A program made the position numbers. DNA of 63,965 nucleotides, counting the filler, from Theionarchaea archaeon (GTDB lineage: Archaea > Methanobacteriota_B > Thermococci > Methanofastidiosales > SZ-28-30), in NCBI GenBank assembly GCA_018992565.1. It is 3 parts of 3 records of this genome, joined end to end, with 100 filler letters (N's around TTAATTAATTAA, not from the genome) between each part and the next. Parts side by side here need not be neighbours in the genome. Positions count along the whole stretch, not along the records: positions 1 to 21,429 come from JACVGW010000047.1; positions 21,530 to 42,954 come from JACVGW010000048.1; 1 more part is not named here. The stretch is one strand, 5' to 3'. Shown here one piece after another: positions 18,044-24,000 of the stretch (position 1 is its first letter; each line of letters opens with the position of its first letter).

Positions 18044-21000
18044 TGAAGAGGGAACTCAAAATCTCAGCCATCAAGAATGGTACCGTTATTGACCACATTA
18101 CCCCTGGTAAAGCTTTTGAAGTTGCGAGGATATTGGGGCTAGAGGATTTCTCTGCTCCGGTGTCTATTGCTGTGAATGTATCAAGTGGGAAGAGTGGAAC
18201 CAAGGATATCATAAAGATCGAGAACAGAGAATTGTCGAAGAATGAGGTGGATAGGATTAGCCTGGTAGCCCCTAACGCCACGGTGAATATTGTCAAGAAC
18301 TATGAGGTCATTGATAAGAAAAAAGTGGAGATACCTTCTGAGATTGTGGGCATTTTACCCTGCTCTAACGCGAATTGTGTTACTCATTTTGAGCCAGTGA
18401 AGACCAAGTTTCTGCTGGAAAGCATTACTCCATTGCGTATCAGGTGTTTCTACTGTGAAAGAGTCTTGACTGAAGATGATATTAAGAGGGAGATTGCCAG
18501 AGAGGACTGATGATTTTCTTCCTGTTGAATTGAGTGTTGCTTCAGGGCCGCTTTGCTGTAGCTGGAAAGGCGAATAGAGTCATTCGTATTCAGAAAACGA
18601 GACACGTGTATTGGAACGTACTTATATGAACTTTCCTTGGAATTCACTTCTCATCTTGACTAATTCCTCTAGTGCTTGCTCTATTATGAGCGTAGGTATG
18701 GATTTAGTTAATTCGTATGAAACTTTGCTATAGTAATACACGTTTTGCGTATTCTTGTCTATGCGAGTAGTTCGCAATCTCTTGTTGCCCAAAAGCCATT
18801 CTTCTGCAGTCTTCATATCTGAATTGAGAGCTTTGAGAGCACGAGTGGCGAAGAAAGCTTCTTTTGGCGTTAGTTCGAGGGAAAAACGAGCCATTATCCA
18901 TTGTCTACATGCATCCATGTTCTGGATTTTGAGAGTGCCGAGCAAAGAAAGCGATTCTACTGCATAACACGTCTGTAATAAAGGGGAACACGTATCATAC
19001 TCGAAACTGAAATAGCTCCCATTAAAGGAGTTTAACACCCATGTAGTGTGTCTTGACATGTTTTTCGTCTCTTCAAGAAGAGAGAGTGACTGCACTGCAT
19101 AGTACAAGGCTTCAATTTGTGCATGTCCGTCAATAATGAAAGAGAACCCTCCTTCTTCTCTTTCGGTCGCAAGAATCCAACTCAGGACTCTCTCATTCAG
19201 GCTGATTTCGAAGAATTTTGCAGTCTTGCTGTGAATAAAGGTTCCTTCTTGATTCGAAAATCCTTTAGCTTCATGATGAAATCCTCCGTCAAGAGACTGG
19301 TGTCTCCTAATGACTTTTTCGATGAATTGCGGATATGTGTCCTCGATGCCATTTCCTGACGAAGCAATCTCGAGGAGAAAGGAGAACCTGAGGAAACTGA
19401 AGGGCATCGTGATTCTGGTAAAATATAAGAGCAAGACAAAGAGTGCTGATAAGAGGAGTAGATTGCCTCCTGGCACTGCTATGAAGGCCTTAACCATGCA
19501 GAAGACAATGTAGAACATGATAGAGACAAATGTAGGTACAATGAGCAAAATAAAAAGAATCAACAAGTAAAACAGAGGGTTACTGACTGTGACAAATTCC
19601 TTCGTCTTCTTGAAAAAGAAGAGAATTCTTTTTTCTGTGTACACATCAACATTTCCACGTATTACAAGAGATAATAGGGCAAAGAAACCCAGTATGAGTA
19701 CACATAGCATCGAGGGAACGAAAGATTGTGGCTCAATTGTAGTATGGAAGAAAAATCCATGGATGATTGTCATGGGGGGCCAGACAAGAGCAACCATAAG
19801 AAATGGAGCAAACAAAAGATACCAGTCTCTAGAATCGAAATCATTGTGTCTGTTGTTAAGAAATCCTGCAAAGGACATCAAGAGGCCGCAGGCACCAAAT
19901 CCTATAGAAATTACTACGCACTCTCTGTCAAGGAAGAGGCCATAACTAGTTATGGCTGCAGCTGATAGAGTAATTGCTGCATTACTCGCAAGGGGAAAAA
20001 AGAAATCCTTACGGACTAGATCGCAAAAGTGTAGGGGCGTTCTGGTAATTGGAAATACATAAGTTATTGCCACCAGGCTGGAAGCTCCAACAAAAGGAAT
20101 GACTCCTTTAAGAAATGCCTCGAATTCTGGTGTCGATGTGATTTGAAACAACACATTTGCATTAATAAAGAAGTGATTAATGGAGTAGTAAAGAAAGACA
20201 GACATTACTCCTATGCAGAATGCAAATACGGGCGAAAAGTTCTCATTCTTCGCTTTGAGAAAAGTCTTTTCATCAATATTATTGAGTCTCTCTTGGAGAG
20301 GTGGATGAGTTGACAGTCCATGTCTTGATTTCGCACCCTGATGAAAACAAAGATTCACGATACCACCCCTTTCCAATGTTCCTATGCTAGCATACTTCAC
20401 CAGAGCTGACTTCAATGAGGTGTCACATCCATGAAAGATGGTATAGGCATCCGCTATTGACTCTCTGGTCCTGGAAAGGGAGCTTTTAAGGAATACCAGG
20501 GAAAAGTAGAGCAGCAGGACGAGAATGGGGAACAGTATGACAGCTTCAAGATCAGGGCTAAGCTCAAAAACAAAGGGATATGAAAATCCAGAATGGGCGG
20601 AGTATACGAATTCTGCATAAGCGAGAGGAAAAGGGGGAATCCAATACTTGAAGCCTTCAAGGAGAATTGTCAACCAAGTGAAGAATCCCACATCGCCTTG
20701 ATAGACATGAGAGAGCTCGTGCGTAATGACAGCATGTTGTTCTTTTTCAGTCAACAATGACATACTCTCAGGAAGTACAAGTACAGACTCTCTTCTGCCT
20801 CTTCCGTAGACGAGAGGTGAAATTCCTAGTGATGTACTTTTCACTTTTGGCGTTGCAGCCAGACTAACAAGACGACTGATTTTTCGAACATTTCCTGGCG
20901 TCTTCATATCTTTGAGATGGAGACGCCTTTCAACTAGCATGAGAAGAAACTCATACACGACTATACCTAAGAATAATGGAAGAAGGAAATAGACAGAAAG

Positions 21001-24000
21001 GATGAAGAATTTGAAACTACCAGTGTGGAAATACAAGGAAATGAAGACAAGTGATACGCTACAAAACAAAAAATACAGACACAATAAAACAGCAAGGATA
21101 AGCAGAATCTGAATATCGCTCTCATACTTGTCAATTATTCTCTTTCTCTTTCCTACACAGAGATAGAAAATAGGAATTGACATACCCAATAGATAACACC
21201 ATGCTATTACTGCAGAACCCATGGGATATAATATTGCTCTTGGCTGAAAAATGTTTGCTTTCTGATAGAATTCTTTCTACTATTAACAGAGTAAGAAAGC
21301 AGTGCCGCGGGCCGGGCTTGAACCAGCGACTTCCAGATCTTCAGTCTGGCGCTCTCCCAACTGAGCTACCGCGGCTATTCTACTGTTTTTCGACTCAGCC
21401 TTAAAAAGATTGTGGTCCCCGTTTTCTCTNNNNNNNNNNNNNNNNNNNNNNNNNNNNNNNNNNNNNNNNNNNNTTAATTAATTAANNNNNNNNNNNNNNN
21501 NNNNNNNNNNNNNNNNNNNNNNNNNNNNNCAGCATATGTGAAACATCCGTTTTTCAGCCGTACCCGGGCTCGGAAGCTTTTGAGAGTCCTGGAGAACATG
21601 ATGTGGTCATTGATTCCTTTCATTGGTCAAACTACAGAGAAAACCCTCCTTTCTTTCCGCCTGTTTCTCACTTGGGTGAATTTTCCCCATTTGAAATCAC
21701 TCAGTGGTACTGGACATTCAGATTACATGTTCTACAATGGCTTACAAGAGCCTTGGGATATACATTCGAAGATCTCAACGAGGTGTAGGAGATTCTGAAT
21801 GAAGTGAACACATGTCGTTGCAGGAGATGCAAGGACTCTCATGACAATGACTACCAGGTTCCCTGCGAGGAATAGCATTCATGCTAAGAATAAGCTGACT
21901 ACCATATCGATACATGTACCTTTGTTACTGGATAATCGTTCAGAACCCTTTTTAATTTCGCTTTTGAATGTGACGTGAGGTGATGTCATGCAAGCAGTAA
22001 TAGCTCTCATTGGAATAGCAACACGGCTCATACTCTCTGCGGGCCTCATTTATGTCCTGCTCAAGATAGGAAAGGTTCTGGACGTTCTCCCAGACATTCT
22101 GTCGAAAAAGTATGCATCAGAAAACAAATAATCCCTTTCTTTTTTTGTTCTCCCTGGTCATCCCGGCACTGTGAATCAAAGCTTCATCTACCTTCTGGAT
22201 CAGAATTTCTATTCTTGCAGGGAACCCTTCTCCAGTAGTCTTTACACTTCTCTAGTTACCTCTACCTTTCTCTTCTCACTACATAATTGAAACGGGTGCA
22301 AAGGAAAATAACGATCATACCTCAATATCCTCATCTGAAGTAACAGAAATGTGATCCTGACCCATTACAATAACATAATCTGCTGCATTCTGCAGTGCAA
22401 TGGAAAATCCAGGTTCTGCGCCAATGACAATGGTCTCTTTTCCATATTCTTTTGACTTGACCAAGATGGGTAGAAAATCAGTGTCTCGAGTGGCCAGGGC
22501 TACAGTATCCACTGTGTCATTGTAGATCAATTCCATGGCCTCTATACCCATCCTCACATCTATGTCCCCAGCTACCACAATAGAGTCAAATCCCTGGTTT
22601 GCTATAGCCTCTATCAACCCCTGGGAAGCATACTGGTTGAGCAGGACTTTGCCAATCCTGATATCTCCCATGTTCTCCAGAATTGCCTTCACGTCGTCCA
22701 GGTTGATGCCAAACTCTTTTCTCAGTATATTTGGACCATCAATGATCAATCCGATTTTGCGATCTTTACTGCGCTTCTTTCTGGCAACTGTACCAACGTA
22801 GCGAGTAATTCCTTGTGAGACGCGCTTGACATTTCTCCATCCAGCGTTCATGAAAACACCAATATGTTCTAATCGTTTAAAAACCTTATAAACCTTTCTA
22901 CCTGATAATTGTGATAATTTCCTTTTGAAATGCTCATAATTGCGATGAAAGGAGTGTTTCTAAGAGCTGATTACCTGTTAATCTGTTCGCAGTATGGAAG
23001 AACAGGCGCAGGGTTACCAACCCTGGAGGCTACAGTGCAGCTGCCTTTTCTTCCATTTCTCTCATCTTACCGCAGGAGAGATCTTTTTCAGGACAGGATC
23101 CAGACTGTACGCAGGAAGGTCCCCCCTTGGAAAAGATGAGCGGAGCTTTCCCTTTGACCAGACTCAGCATCTTCCATGCAACCTCTCGCAGCTCCCACTG
23201 GGTTCTTTCACAGCAGCGCAGGGCAAAGAAATGAAGCAGTTCTCGCGCATTCATGGTCACCATTATATTAGTCATAGCAGCATTCGGAAGAATGAAGCGC
23301 GCATCCTCCTCAGGAATTTTCATTCCCAGGAGGTTCTGATACAATTCAAACCCTTCATGGATATTCTGACGGAACTTCTCTGCGGCTTCCTGGTTTTCTT
23401 TGATGTTGGGAGGAGTGACGAATGAGAGAGATTCCACTGTTACATACCGCTGAGATTGTTGTGTATAGCTCGCAAGCCTGTGCCGCACTAACTGGTGGGA
23501 GCAGGCCCGAGAAATTCCTTCAAGGCTGAAGGTGAAAGATGCATGTTCGATGACTGAGATATGTCCTTTTTCAATAGCATCTGTCAGGTGGGTTAGATCA
23601 GTCCCATCATTCCATAGGTCCTTGAATTCAGACCACGGCCTGGGCCATTTCGAGACAAGGGCTGCTTGAGCACAGAGACGATCGGGATCTGGAGTGTGAG
23701 CGACGAGTTCAACATTCATATATTGACCTCTCTTGAGATGTATTAAAGGTTTCTCACGGATTATAGACGAGAGGAGAATACCTAATTAGTGGAGAAAGGT
23801 ACCTGAGTCCAGGTCTCCAGCATCAAGACTTGCATGCAGTGGTGCAAAGTCAGGTATGTCAATTAATGAGAGCTCTCATTTTCAGTGTAATCAGTATACT
23901 GCTGAATCGAGGTTTTATATTCTGCTTTTCAGAAGGATTAGAGGAACAGTATATTTCTCACTAGGACCTTCAATACATCGTCTTCACGAGAATCACCAAC

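Follow-up and report, generated by a model that had tools for sequence, protein, structure and literature searches.

The genome of a Theionarchaea archaeon carries a gene whose product joins a membrane-bound zinc metalloprotease to a helical domain that resembles the beta subunits of eukaryotic protein prenyltransferases. The preliminary description of the locus suggested that the two folds that carry out consecutive steps of CaaX processing are thereby united in one archaeal protein, which raises the question of what the two parts do together. The first half of this suggestion stands, in that an M48 domain and a prenyltransferase-beta-like toroid are found in one polypeptide, whereas the consecutive CaaX activities are unsupported by the evidence presented below.

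The reading frame and its setting

The window, by which we mean the whole analyzed stretch of 63,965 nucleotides, consists of concatenated contigs. Because positions 21430-21529 are an artificial contig join, filled with N and ttaattaattaa, the genuine context upstream of the gene is limited to 207 nt. The 866-aa ORF that had been reported here (hereafter P0001) was recovered from the ORF list and by translation, with an ATG start (Table 1), and its N-terminus lines up with the starts of 24 homologs in an alignment; it is a genuine ORF. The paralog on contig C51 was likewise recovered, with 38% identity, and the earlier full-length AlphaFold modelling was repeated independently with AlphaFold2 (AF2; pLDDT 76.6, pTM 0.72).

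Table 1. Features of P0001 in window coordinates, with the evidence for each.
Feature	Position	Strand	Basis
Whole ORF (866 aa + stop); polytopic membrane M48 metalloprotease with C-terminal alpha/alpha toroid	18622..21222	minus	ORF list, translation, ATG start
M48 protease region, residues 1-330	20233..21222	minus	Pfam PF01435, AF2 helices, 3cqb, VIA
N-terminal TM helices, residues 2-24, 33-67, 70-101	within 20233..21222	minus	AF2 model
Predicted cytoplasmic catalytic M48 domain, residues 102-177	within 20233..21222	minus	AF2 model
HELSH (H168, E169, H172), zinc-binding and catalytic motif	20707..20721	minus	invariant in 24/24 members
TM hairpin 178-210 / 226-247, then E254 helix, then HPP helix	within 20233..21222	minus	AF2 model
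SRTRESIADAY, residues 250-260	20443..20475	minus	conservation in 24-member alignment
HPPLQER, residues 306-312, C-terminal M48 motif	20287..20307	minus	H306, R312 invariant in A1
Eight-TM block, residues 331-604	19411..20232	minus	AF2 model, loop K+R counts
TM helices 331-359, 365-389, 405-430, 433-456, 466-492, 498-521, 548-580, 586-604	within 19411..20232	minus	AF2
12-helix (six-hairpin) alpha/alpha toroid, residues 605-866	18625..19410	minus	Pfam PF00432, VIA, conservation
Toroid motifs DGGF 645-648, GGF 691-693, LLQTCYA 748-754, E788, RIDKN 820-824	within 18625..19410	minus	conservation

An intact M48-clan protease

The Peptidase_M48 domain (residues 138-318; Pfam E 1.8e-13, 51.1 bits against a cut-off of 20.3) and the HELSH motif at residues 168-172 were both found where they had been placed before. 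Throughout the 24-member alignment A1, residues R251, R253, E254, D258 and A259 are invariant, and the R-x-R-E-S-x-x-D-A and H-P-P...R motifs have no exceptions (24/24). When a more distant family is added to the alignment, E169, H172, D177, E254, D258 and R312 all remain invariant, while H168 and P307 are kept in at least 90% of the sequences. From knowledge of the M48 family we take E254 to be the third zinc ligand. With all catalytic motifs intact, P0001 is, as judged from its sequence, most likely a catalytically competent M48-clan membrane zinc metalloprotease of the HtpX/BlaR1/Ste24 kind.

The initial label of a Ste24-type protease is over-specific. The best sequence matches are the NCBIfam HtpX equivalogs and the HtpX domain 3cqb in the PDB, to which the family profile was matched at E 3.4e-4 and which aligns with an rmsd of 2.7 Å over 86 residues. 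HtpX (MEROPS M48B), a protein of membrane quality control, has the HExxH...E...HPxxxR signature and the TM-flanked cytoplasmic catalytic domain in common with P0001. However, P0001 scores 36 bits, far below the equivalog cut-offs of 341, and is three times longer, with eight extra TM helices and the toroid. An ordinary 286-aa HtpX is also encoded in the genome (L003:1561-2421; Pfam M48, 119 bits). The CaaX proteases Ste24 and ZMPSTE24 (M48A) belong to the same clan, contain the same catalytic motifs and represent the best full-length structural match to the protease part (Foldseek E 5e-5; VIA Z 11.1 for Ste24p and 10.6), but the rmsd is 9.7-9.8 Å and the Z-scores are within about 1 of that of BlaR1. 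Furthermore, P0001 has three rather than five TM helices before HExxH, the Ste24-specific N-terminal family is not among its Pfam matches, and its sequence favors HtpX and BlaR1.

Membrane topology

The AF2 model contains about 13 TM helices in total. Residues 331-604 gave no match in Pfam or the ESM Atlas and correspond to no known family; a beta mini-domain (residues 525-542) sits inside a K/R-rich loop of this block that is predicted to be cytoplasmic. The block separates the toroid from the catalytic domain by an even number of helices, eight. Averaged over 24 sequences, the predicted-inside loops hold a mean of 3.0, 1.3, 1.8 and 5.8 K+R, as compared to 0.2, 0.5, 0, 0, 0.2 and 0.1 in the predicted-outside loops. 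The catalytic domain of HtpX is described in a passage of PMC9263693 as facing the cytoplasm. The protease site and the toroid are thus predicted to share the cytoplasmic side of the membrane; a third TM helix within residues 548-611, where the model has two, would put the toroid outside the cell. For the N-terminal part, the model reaches only a moderate pLDDT of 65. The toroid starts five residues past the last TM helix of the model, and its mouth, formed by the repeat loops, is predicted to be turned back toward the membrane face bearing the protease site.

This topology bears on the possibility that P0001 is a signal transducer similar to BlaR1/MecR1 (M56), in which the toroid would sense a ligand and the M48/M56-type protease would cleave a repressor or an anti-sigma-like regulator. 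BlaR1 is likewise a TM gluzincin with additional TM segments and a ligand-binding domain at its C-terminus, and its structure (8exp; Z 9.9, as compared to 9.3 for the HtpX domain) gives the lowest rmsd among the full-length matches, 5.1 Å over 221 residues. The Pfam BlaR1 peptidase M56 family is matched at residues 99-196, as it also is by the paralog and by the majority of the family, but the 22.7 bits fall under the cut-off of 31. Moreover, the C-terminal domain of BlaR1 is an extracellular penicillin-binding domain, whereas the toroid is predicted to be cytoplasmic. No repressor gene lies beside P0001, a BlaI/MecI-type or other regulator gene adjoins none of the loci read, and the neighborhoods vary from locus to locus. 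We consider a role of this kind unlikely.

A toroid without the prenyltransferase zinc site

Residues 605-866 (pLDDT about 90) form a toroid of the prenyltransferase/terpene-cyclase repeat type. The previously reported Prenyltrans match (PF00432, residues 632-779) was obtained again at E 1.7e-6 and 28.1 bits, just above the cut-off of 26.5, as was the structural match to prenyltransferase beta subunits. These account for all of the best 38 Foldseek matches in the PDB (E 1.7e-5 to 3e-3), with ZMPSTE24 and Ste24p next in the search with the full-length model (E 5e-3), and for 50 of the 50 matches listed by VIA-align, among them GGTase-III/RabGGTase beta (Z 21.9, 256 residues aligned, rmsd 3.3 Å). 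The ranking ahead of terpene cyclases also holds in a comparison with 48,161 representative chains, where seven prenyltransferase-beta clusters have Z 21.2-17.9, squalene-hopene cyclase 16.0 and class II terpene cyclases at most 15.2. As in the beta subunits of FTase, GGTase-I and RabGGTase/GGTase-III, the barrel has six hairpins and GGF-type repeats, and 240-259 residues can be aligned (Z 21.9-17.9, rmsd 2.8-3.6 Å). However, the identity to these subunits is 13-15%, and the toroid is shorter (about 260 aa versus 330-440 aa) and tethered to a membrane protease.

The similarity to the beta subunits above terpene cyclases, together with the Ste24 and ZMPSTE24 matches and the prediction of one cytoplasmic side for both parts, would suit a bifunctional CaaX enzyme, in which the toroid prenylates a protein or RiPP precursor on its C-terminal Cys before the M48 domain removes -aaX, as in Ste24. 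A polyprenyl synthetase-like ORF elsewhere in the window (30208-31308, judged from its translation alone) and a conserved polar patch on the active-site face of the barrel, described below, also speak in favor of it. The zinc site of the prenyltransferases is nevertheless missing from the toroid, whether by loss or from the outset: the Asp/Cys/His ligands map to E788, F790 and about N827, as given by the best HMM alignment register and the VIA ranges, while an alternative register on Q750/C752 (3.9 bits, i-E-value about 100) supplies no His. The QTCY motif, which had been likened to the D-x-C-Y ligand motif, is simply the usual consensus of the repeats in non-enzymatic toroid proteins of prokaryotes, and in the distant family C752 is replaced by Phe or Tyr. 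A search of the genome (88% complete) gave no match to a PPTA alpha subunit. The protease, as described above, is not specifically Ste24-like and has three, not five, TM helices before HExxH.

Nor does the genomic context argue for CaaX processing. ICMT-family and Rce1-like genes are indeed present, as noted before, and gave 2 and 7 matches here, but these families were also matched in 5 and 11, respectively, of 14 control genomes from prokaryotes. C-termini of the type C-[AVILMF]2-X are not enriched, being found in 11 of 3008 ORFs as compared to 2-14 when the pattern is slid 1-11 residues upstream, and the loci read have no conserved gene for a precursor or a modification enzyme beside the P0001 homologs. 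A bifunctional CaaX enzyme is in our view very unlikely, and P0001 is most likely not evidence of eukaryote-style protein prenylation.

The polar patch comprises residues that are near-invariant in the 24 members (D645, D649, Q658, D660, R702, D743, Q750, C752, E788, R820, D822, K823, N824) and lie at the inner-helix N-termini, on the same side of the barrel as the active site of the prenyltransferases. It could mark a catalytic and not merely a binding site, and the closest solved structures of the toroid are clearly enzymes (Z 21.9 versus 16.0 for the next fold family); both observations count against the binding role that we favor below. In favor of that role, the only toroid residues that survive between the two families are those of the repeat consensus (GGF, T751, A709/A754, L758, H725, W728 and F738), whereas the motifs of the protease remain invariant.

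One might also envision that the membrane-facing toroid binds an isoprenoid, such as a polyprenyl phosphate or diphosphate or an archaeal lipid precursor, and either acts on the lipid or couples proteolysis to lipid status. The characterized members of the fold, prenyltransferases and terpene cyclases, bind isoprenoids, and archaeal beta-subunit homologs are said to take part in isoprenoid metabolism in a passage of PMC4915359. The short distance to the last TM helix and the conserved R702, R820, K823 and D822 would fit such a role. On the other hand, inspection of residues 605-866 revealed no DxDD or DDxxD motif, the conserved charges are not retained in the distant family, and two that are kept in at least 90% of the family are gone in P0001 itself (D660 to Gly, R702 to Gln). 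A lipid-synthesis gene is a conserved neighbor at none of the loci read, and we find a lipid-directed function rather doubtful.

The toroid as a putative binding module

On balance, we lean toward the hypothesis that P0001 is a lineage-restricted membrane protease in which the cytoplasmic toroid is a putative non-catalytic module for the binding of a substrate or ligand. Such a role seems most likely because the toroid is without the zinc site and the partner subunit that prenyltransferases need. BepA, an M48 protease with an all-helical repeat domain that is used in the interaction with partners or substrates, provides a precedent and is among the structural matches (Z 7.6), although BepA is periplasmic and soluble with TPR repeats, whereas P0001 is membrane-bound with a toroid. 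Outside the family, the closest sequences are those of prokaryotic PF00432 toroid proteins of unassigned function, annotated with a prenyltransferase alpha-alpha toroid domain or squalene-oxidase repeats (28-30% identity, E 1e-18 to 1e-3), which also make up the nearest ESM Atlas clusters (0.94). They have the regular x-A/S-T-Y-x-A repeat consensus in common with P0001, but are soluble, secreted or fused to Big_13, collagen, TED or OLD nuclease domains, and not to M48.

In the scheme that we propose, the core protease, with three TM helices ahead of HExxH and a TM hairpin behind it, would be followed by the eight TM helices and the cytoplasmic toroid, a member of the prenyltransferase-beta/terpene-cyclase superfamily that may capture or gate the substrate. 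The substrate may be the C-terminus or cytoplasmic tail of a protein that sits in or at the membrane, perhaps together with an isoprenoid moiety, and would then be cleaved at the M48 site.

Family distribution and modularity

The family is lineage-restricted, but larger than the eight homologs counted in the preliminary description: 24 proteins were identified at E <= 1e-109, in addition to the distant family, whose members have about 910-1000 aa and the same M48 plus toroid architecture. Some homologs had been thought to consist of the barrel and the TM part only; the four of this kind that were read, P0026, P0027, P0028 and P0032, start inside the M48 or TM region and are truncated gene fragments. 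No conserved operon partner was found in the nine loci examined, which fits a self-contained protease. Other archaea contain a 511-aa relative with M48 and four TM helices but no toroid, as well as stand-alone toroid ORFs; the M48 part and the toroid are thus modular.

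The fusion protein and its distribution

The best-supported reading of the 866-aa protein (P0001), and one that we consider probable on balance, is that of an M48-clan membrane protease with a cytoplasmic, non-catalytic toroid as a binding module. The core would be an intact metalloprotease of the M48 clan, and the prenyltransferase-like toroid would bind the substrate or a ligand. This is an unstudied membrane metalloprotease architecture, which occurs in a single archaeal genus and again in a distant second family known from metagenomes, and the portions of the literature searched gave no description of an M48-toroid fusion. 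The accessory domain is well predicted, and simple binding assays could identify its ligand.

The open reading frame, with 866 codons and an ATG start, is present where it had been placed (ORF list and translation), and its N-terminus lines up with the starts of the homologs in the 24-sequence alignment. A search of 5.8 billion proteins recovered 24 proteins at E <= 1e-109 (34-44% identity, mostly 823-882 aa), which replaces the eight homologs of the preliminary description; two of them are annotated as 'M48 family metalloprotease [Theionarchaea archaeon]'. Four homologs of the kind that had been listed as consisting of the transmembrane part and the barrel only (P0026, P0027, P0028 and P0032) start within the M48 or TM region and are truncated ORFs. 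We therefore rejected natural split forms, and the overlapping ORFs at a single metagenome locus (L088) are consistent with a frameshift. Within the phylum, an M48-toroid protein was identified in 3 of 133 genomes, all three of them from the window's own genus and none from the other genera. The genome studied here encodes two copies with 38% identity, together with a separate, ordinary HtpX protein of 286 aa.

With the C-terminal 277 residues as the query, an exhaustive search recovered 105 proteins at E <= 1e-3, 11 of them at E <= 1e-30. The toroid matches outside the family are prokaryotic PF00432 toroid proteins, including the distant set, with lengths of 910-1000 aa. In at least eight proteins of this set, a match to M48 or M56 near the N-terminus is combined with a Prenyltrans match at the C-terminus (P0039, P0051, P0055, P0063, P0064, P0074 and P0086 in a Pfam scan of 35 hits; the others by precomputed Pfam matches). 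Overall identity between the distant family and P0001 is 15-20%. A search with P0039 yielded eight homologous proteins, and P0039 was not found in the five archaeal genomes reached through the loci. In 401 sampled genomes from the phylum of a Bathyarchaeota locus, the profile built from alignment A2 detected M48 genes and toroid genes apart from each other but no full-length fusion; in 401 sampled genomes from the phylum of a Nanoarchaeota locus, it detected nothing at E <= 1e-40. A scan of genome contigs with the full alignment, using patterns from the HELSH region, kept 80 hits at 79 loci; these are ordinary HtpX-type genes, because all matches fall within query residues ~12-366, and the scan added no further family member or context. 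Other archaea have a 511-aa protein with an M48 domain and four TM helices but no toroid, as well as stand-alone toroid ORFs, and the parts are thus modular. Among the toroid proteins, P0068 (938 aa) is a defence-type protein with a like toroid, in which an OLD-family nuclease (AAA_15/AAA_21 and an OLD-like TOPRIM) is fused to the Prenyltrans toroid.

The protease domain

Residues 138-318 match Pfam Peptidase_M48 (PF01435) with an E-value of 1.8e-13 and 51.1 bits against a cut-off of 20.3, and the paralog and the homologs score 48-52 bits. M48 proteases are recognized by an HExxH zinc motif, a downstream Glu ligand and a C-terminal HPxxxxR motif. The corresponding segments HELSH (168-172), S-R-T-R-E-S-I-A-D-A (E254) and H-P-P...R (306-312), with the residues H168, E169, H172, E254, H306 and R312, are invariant in all 24 proteins, and E169, H172, D177, E254, D258 and R312 are still invariant after the addition of 16 members of the distant family. 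Judged by these motifs, the domain is a catalytically intact M48-clan gluzincin.

The domain had been called Ste24-type; membership in the M48 clan holds, but assignment to the Ste24 subfamily is not established. In Ste24 structures, five TM helices precede HExxH and a seven-TM chamber is formed. In the AF2 models, the catalytic domain is preceded by three TM helices (2-24, 33-67 and 70-101), and HExxH and E254 are separated by a TM hairpin. At the sequence level HtpX is favored: the family profile matched the HtpX domain 3cqb in the PDB at E 3.4e-4, with no entry for Ste24 reaching E <= 1, and the NCBIfam matches are weak and all to HtpX equivalogs, the best being NF002669 with 36.3 bits against a cut-off of 341. 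We also modelled residues 1-330 on their own (8 sequences, pLDDT 65) and compared this model with known structures by VIA. Matches to Ste24p (Z 11.1, rmsd 9.8 A over 238 residues), ZMPSTE24 (Z 10.6), BlaR1 (Z 9.9, rmsd 5.1 A over 221) and the HtpX soluble domain (Z 9.3, rmsd 2.7 A over 86) were obtained, with no full-length HtpX among the matches, and Foldseek ranked ZMPSTE24 first (E 5e-5), followed by BlaR1 (1.3e-2). Because Ste24, BlaR1 and HtpX are nearly tied on a moderate model, we assign the domain to the M48 clan without choosing among the subfamilies.

Membrane topology

The full-length AF2 model (24 sequences, pLDDT 76.6, pTM 0.72) contains 13 TM helices: the three N-terminal ones, a hairpin (178-210 and 226-247) and eight helices within residues 331-604, one loop of which includes a small beta mini-domain (525-542). 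This eight-TM block gave no Pfam match and, with residues 322-610 as the query, no usable match in the ESM Atlas. The mean numbers of Lys and Arg residues in the 24 sequences are 3.0, 1.3, 1.8 and 5.8 in the loops on the catalytic side and 0.2, 0.5, 0.0, 0.0, 0.2 and 0.1 in those on the opposite side. Given this bias and the even number of intervening TM helices, the catalytic domain is predicted to be cytoplasmic, as are the mini-domain and the toroid, a prediction that would fail if residues 548-611 hold three helices. It is in line with HtpX, the catalytic domain of which faces the cytoplasm according to the passages available of one study (PMC9263693). A predicted complex of the M48 part (1-330) and the toroid (606-866), run with no controls, scored 0.00 and is evidence neither way.

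The structural match to BlaR1 and a weak Pfam match to its peptidase family bring up the alternative of a BlaR1-like transducer, which we consider unlikely. The match of P0001 to the BlaR1 peptidase family M56 (PF05569, residues 99-196) reaches 22.7 bits, below the cut-off of 31, and no BlaI/MecI-type repressor gene was seen beside the paralog, at six related loci or beside the gene itself, which has only 207 nt of true upstream sequence in this genome. The positive-inside counts, together with the even number of TM helices, led us to reject an extracellular sensor toroid.

The toroid

Residues 605-866 form 12 helices in six hairpins in the AF2 model (pLDDT about 90), and residues 632-779 match Pfam Prenyltrans (PF00432) with an E-value of 1.7e-6 and 28.1 bits against a cut-off of 26.5, the only PF00432 match above the cut-off in the genome. 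Prenyltransferase beta subunits made up the 38 best Foldseek hits for the full model and all 50 VIA-align matches listed, among them GGTase-III beta (Z 21.9, 256 residues aligned, rmsd 3.3 A) and FTase beta (Z about 20). Against 48,161 representative chains, seven beta-subunit clusters (Z 21.2-17.9) were followed by squalene-hopene cyclase at 16.0 and class II terpene cyclases at 15.2-14; thioester (TED) domains came next (about 13.7), and then glycoside hydrolases together with transcobalamin (about 12-13). The reported ranking of beta subunits ahead of terpene cyclases is thereby borne out, with Z-scores of 21.9-17.9 against 16.0. A weak match to the Ribophorin II N-terminal domain (PF05817; residues 787-842, E 0.048) recurs in relatives, and these repeated hits within the toroid suggest that PF05817 may itself be toroid-like.

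The best HMM alignment pairs the first DGGF repeat of the family with the first GG repeat in FTase beta (profile positions 620-720, FTase beta residues 126-233). The VIA comparison equates model residue 844 with RabGGTase beta 307 and GGTase-I beta 338 and starts near residues 91-94 of FTase beta; by these start- and end-points, six hairpins superpose on six hairpins. With D297 and C299 located in the printed FTase sequence, the Asp and Cys zinc ligands map in this register to E788 and F790, at the start of helix 786-798. The His ligand, which we take to be H362 in FTase and its counterparts in GGTase-I and RabGGTase, maps near N827. The Asp/Cys/His triad of the beta subunits is thus missing from the toroid in the register given by the HMM alignment and the VIA end-points. 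Shifting the register by one repeat places LLQTCY on LVDGCY (Q750/C752) at 3.9 bits and an i-E-value of about 100, and supplies no His.

The Q-T-C-Y sequence had been likened to the D-x-C-Y ligand motif. It fits the consensus x-A/S-T-Y-[YCW]-A that is present in every repeat of the nearest non-enzymatic relatives, and most members of the distant family have Tyr (the commonest, at 56%) or Phe in place of C752. We therefore rejected it as a zinc motif: T-[CYF]-[YF]-A recurs in every repeat of the non-enzymatic relatives, and the Cys is lost in the distant family.

Class II terpene cyclases of the squalene-hopene cyclase type have a DxDD motif and paired beta-gamma toroids. No D-x-D-D was found in residues 605-866, which form a single 12-helix toroid. 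A set of polar residues is invariant or nearly so in the 24-member family (D645, D649, Q658, D660, R702, D743, Q750, C752, E788, R820, D822, K823 and N824). These residues occupy the repeat loops and the N-terminal ends of the inner helices and thus the mouth of the barrel, where prenyltransferases have their active site. Since the first inner helix begins five residues past the last TM helix in the AF2 model and the inner helices are parallel, the mouth should face the membrane and the protease side.

The polar mouth and the fold family, whose characterised members bind isoprenoids, could point to a toroid with a lipid-directed role, to which we assign a rather low probability. Most of the polar set is not kept in the distant family, and even in P0001 residue 660 is Gly and residue 702 is Gln; these differences count against a strict need for the set. 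Quite improbable in our view is a bolder version, in which the membrane domain replaces the alpha subunit and the barrel and the M48 site make up a self-contained machine for isoprenoid-peptide or lipid-peptide processing that needs no alpha subunit. The polar mouth (D743, Q750, C752, E788, R820, D822, K823 and N824), turned to the membrane, would then bind either an isoprenoid of the archaeal membrane or a Cys tail that carries an isoprenoid. If true, such a machine would be analogous, in a prokaryote, to the first two CaaX-processing steps, or a relic of them.

The CaaX pathway

Whether archaea have any machinery for protein prenylation bears on the origin of the membrane targeting of eukaryotic small GTPases, and a covalent fusion of both CaaX-pathway folds would be a striking lead. 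In the excerpts available of two studies, archaeal beta-subunit homologs are described as common, with no evidence of protein prenyltransferase activity (PMC4915359), and prenyltransferases and CaaX domains are given as absent from archaea (PMC4917890).

A bifunctional enzyme that performs two consecutive CaaX activities was the proposal of the preliminary description, and the ICMT-family and Rce1-like genes that were cited beside it are present (two and seven matches). These counts say nothing specific about CaaX processing, because the same searches also match 5 and 11 of 14 ordinary control genomes, respectively. Proteins ending in C-[AVILMF]-[AVILMF]-X make up 11 of 3008 non-overlapping ORFs of at least 60 aa and are not enriched, as the pattern occurs 2-14 times when slid 1-11 residues upstream. 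Furthermore, no alpha subunit with PPTA repeats (PF01239) was detected at E <= 0.01 in this genome, the completeness of which is 88.4%. With zinc triad, alpha subunit and CaaX enrichment all not found, we regard the bifunctional enzyme as very improbable; the probability left over from the readings considered falls to functions outside them. Most likely, the protease uses the toroid as its binding module, and the fusion alone thus does not change the published picture.

Genomic setting

Window positions 1-21429 correspond to contig C128, and the window continues past an artificial join (see table below), so that genes beyond position 21429 are not true neighbours of those before it. For this reason, the NYN, ThyX, HAD and glutamine synthetase genes of the window were rejected as context. 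Relatives in metagenome loci do adjoin ThyX/NYN (L089 and L090) or HAD/glutamine synthetase (L086 and L087), which may reflect an older arrangement. On C128, the neighbours include pyrI, pyrB and a gene for a dihydroorotase-like amidohydrolase. L086 and L087 have an Hdr/Mvh-like cluster upstream and HAD, glutamine synthetase and a pentapeptide protein downstream, and at locus L083 the neighbours are DUF3795 and DUF6144. In three loci (L002, L085 and L091), genes of the paralog type follow a gene for Diphthami_syn_2 (PF01902) and one for a class-I glutamine amidotransferase, possibly as an operon. No conserved neighbouring regulator, precursor peptide gene, prenyl-diphosphate synthase or methyltransferase was found in the loci read.

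Features of the window and of related loci
Feature	Position	Strand	Remarks
Two tandem radical SAM proteins	7742-9118; 9125-10516	-; -	458 and 463 aa; Radical_SAM and Fer4_12
Fused nucleotidyltransferase and GT2 glycosyltransferase	10870-12309		adjoins the 848-aa membrane protein
Polytopic membrane protein	12460-15006	+	848 aa
M48-toroid gene (P0001)	18622-21222	-	866 codons
tRNA-Phe (GAA) gene	21302-21375	-	80 nt upstream of the M48-toroid gene, same strand, end of C128
Artificial join	21430-21529		N run with central ttaattaattaa six-frame stop linker
Pentapeptide-repeat protein	26014-27396	-	C-terminal TM/ion-channel-like segment
Secreted-looking protein	28148-28711	-	~60-aa internal direct repeat (GFAGGCWDQLTEEQREALEQLVQEMNDSGASP...), broken by N run
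Relative of the pentapeptide-repeat protein	L086:13122-14534		Pentapeptide_3 and Ion_trans_2
Diphthami_syn_2 and glutamine amidotransferase genes before paralog type	L002:2474-3690; L085:7588-8813; L091:1761-3040		gaps of ~25-50 nt or overlap

The GC content is 0.40-0.42 across the gene (window 18001-22000) against ~0.45-0.48 in most of the window, a difference that codon bias in a hydrophobic membrane protein could account for. The tandem radical SAM proteins, encoded about 8 kb away from the M48-toroid gene, have Cys-rich C-terminal parts and are possibly peptide-maturase-like. The C-terminal soluble part of the 848-aa membrane protein is large, and the protein matches no Pfam family at E <= 1e-3. 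N runs also break ORFs near window positions 28200-28900. The pentapeptide-repeat protein lies beside glutamine synthetase and a HAD hydrolase, an arrangement that is kept in this genome and one metagenome contig.
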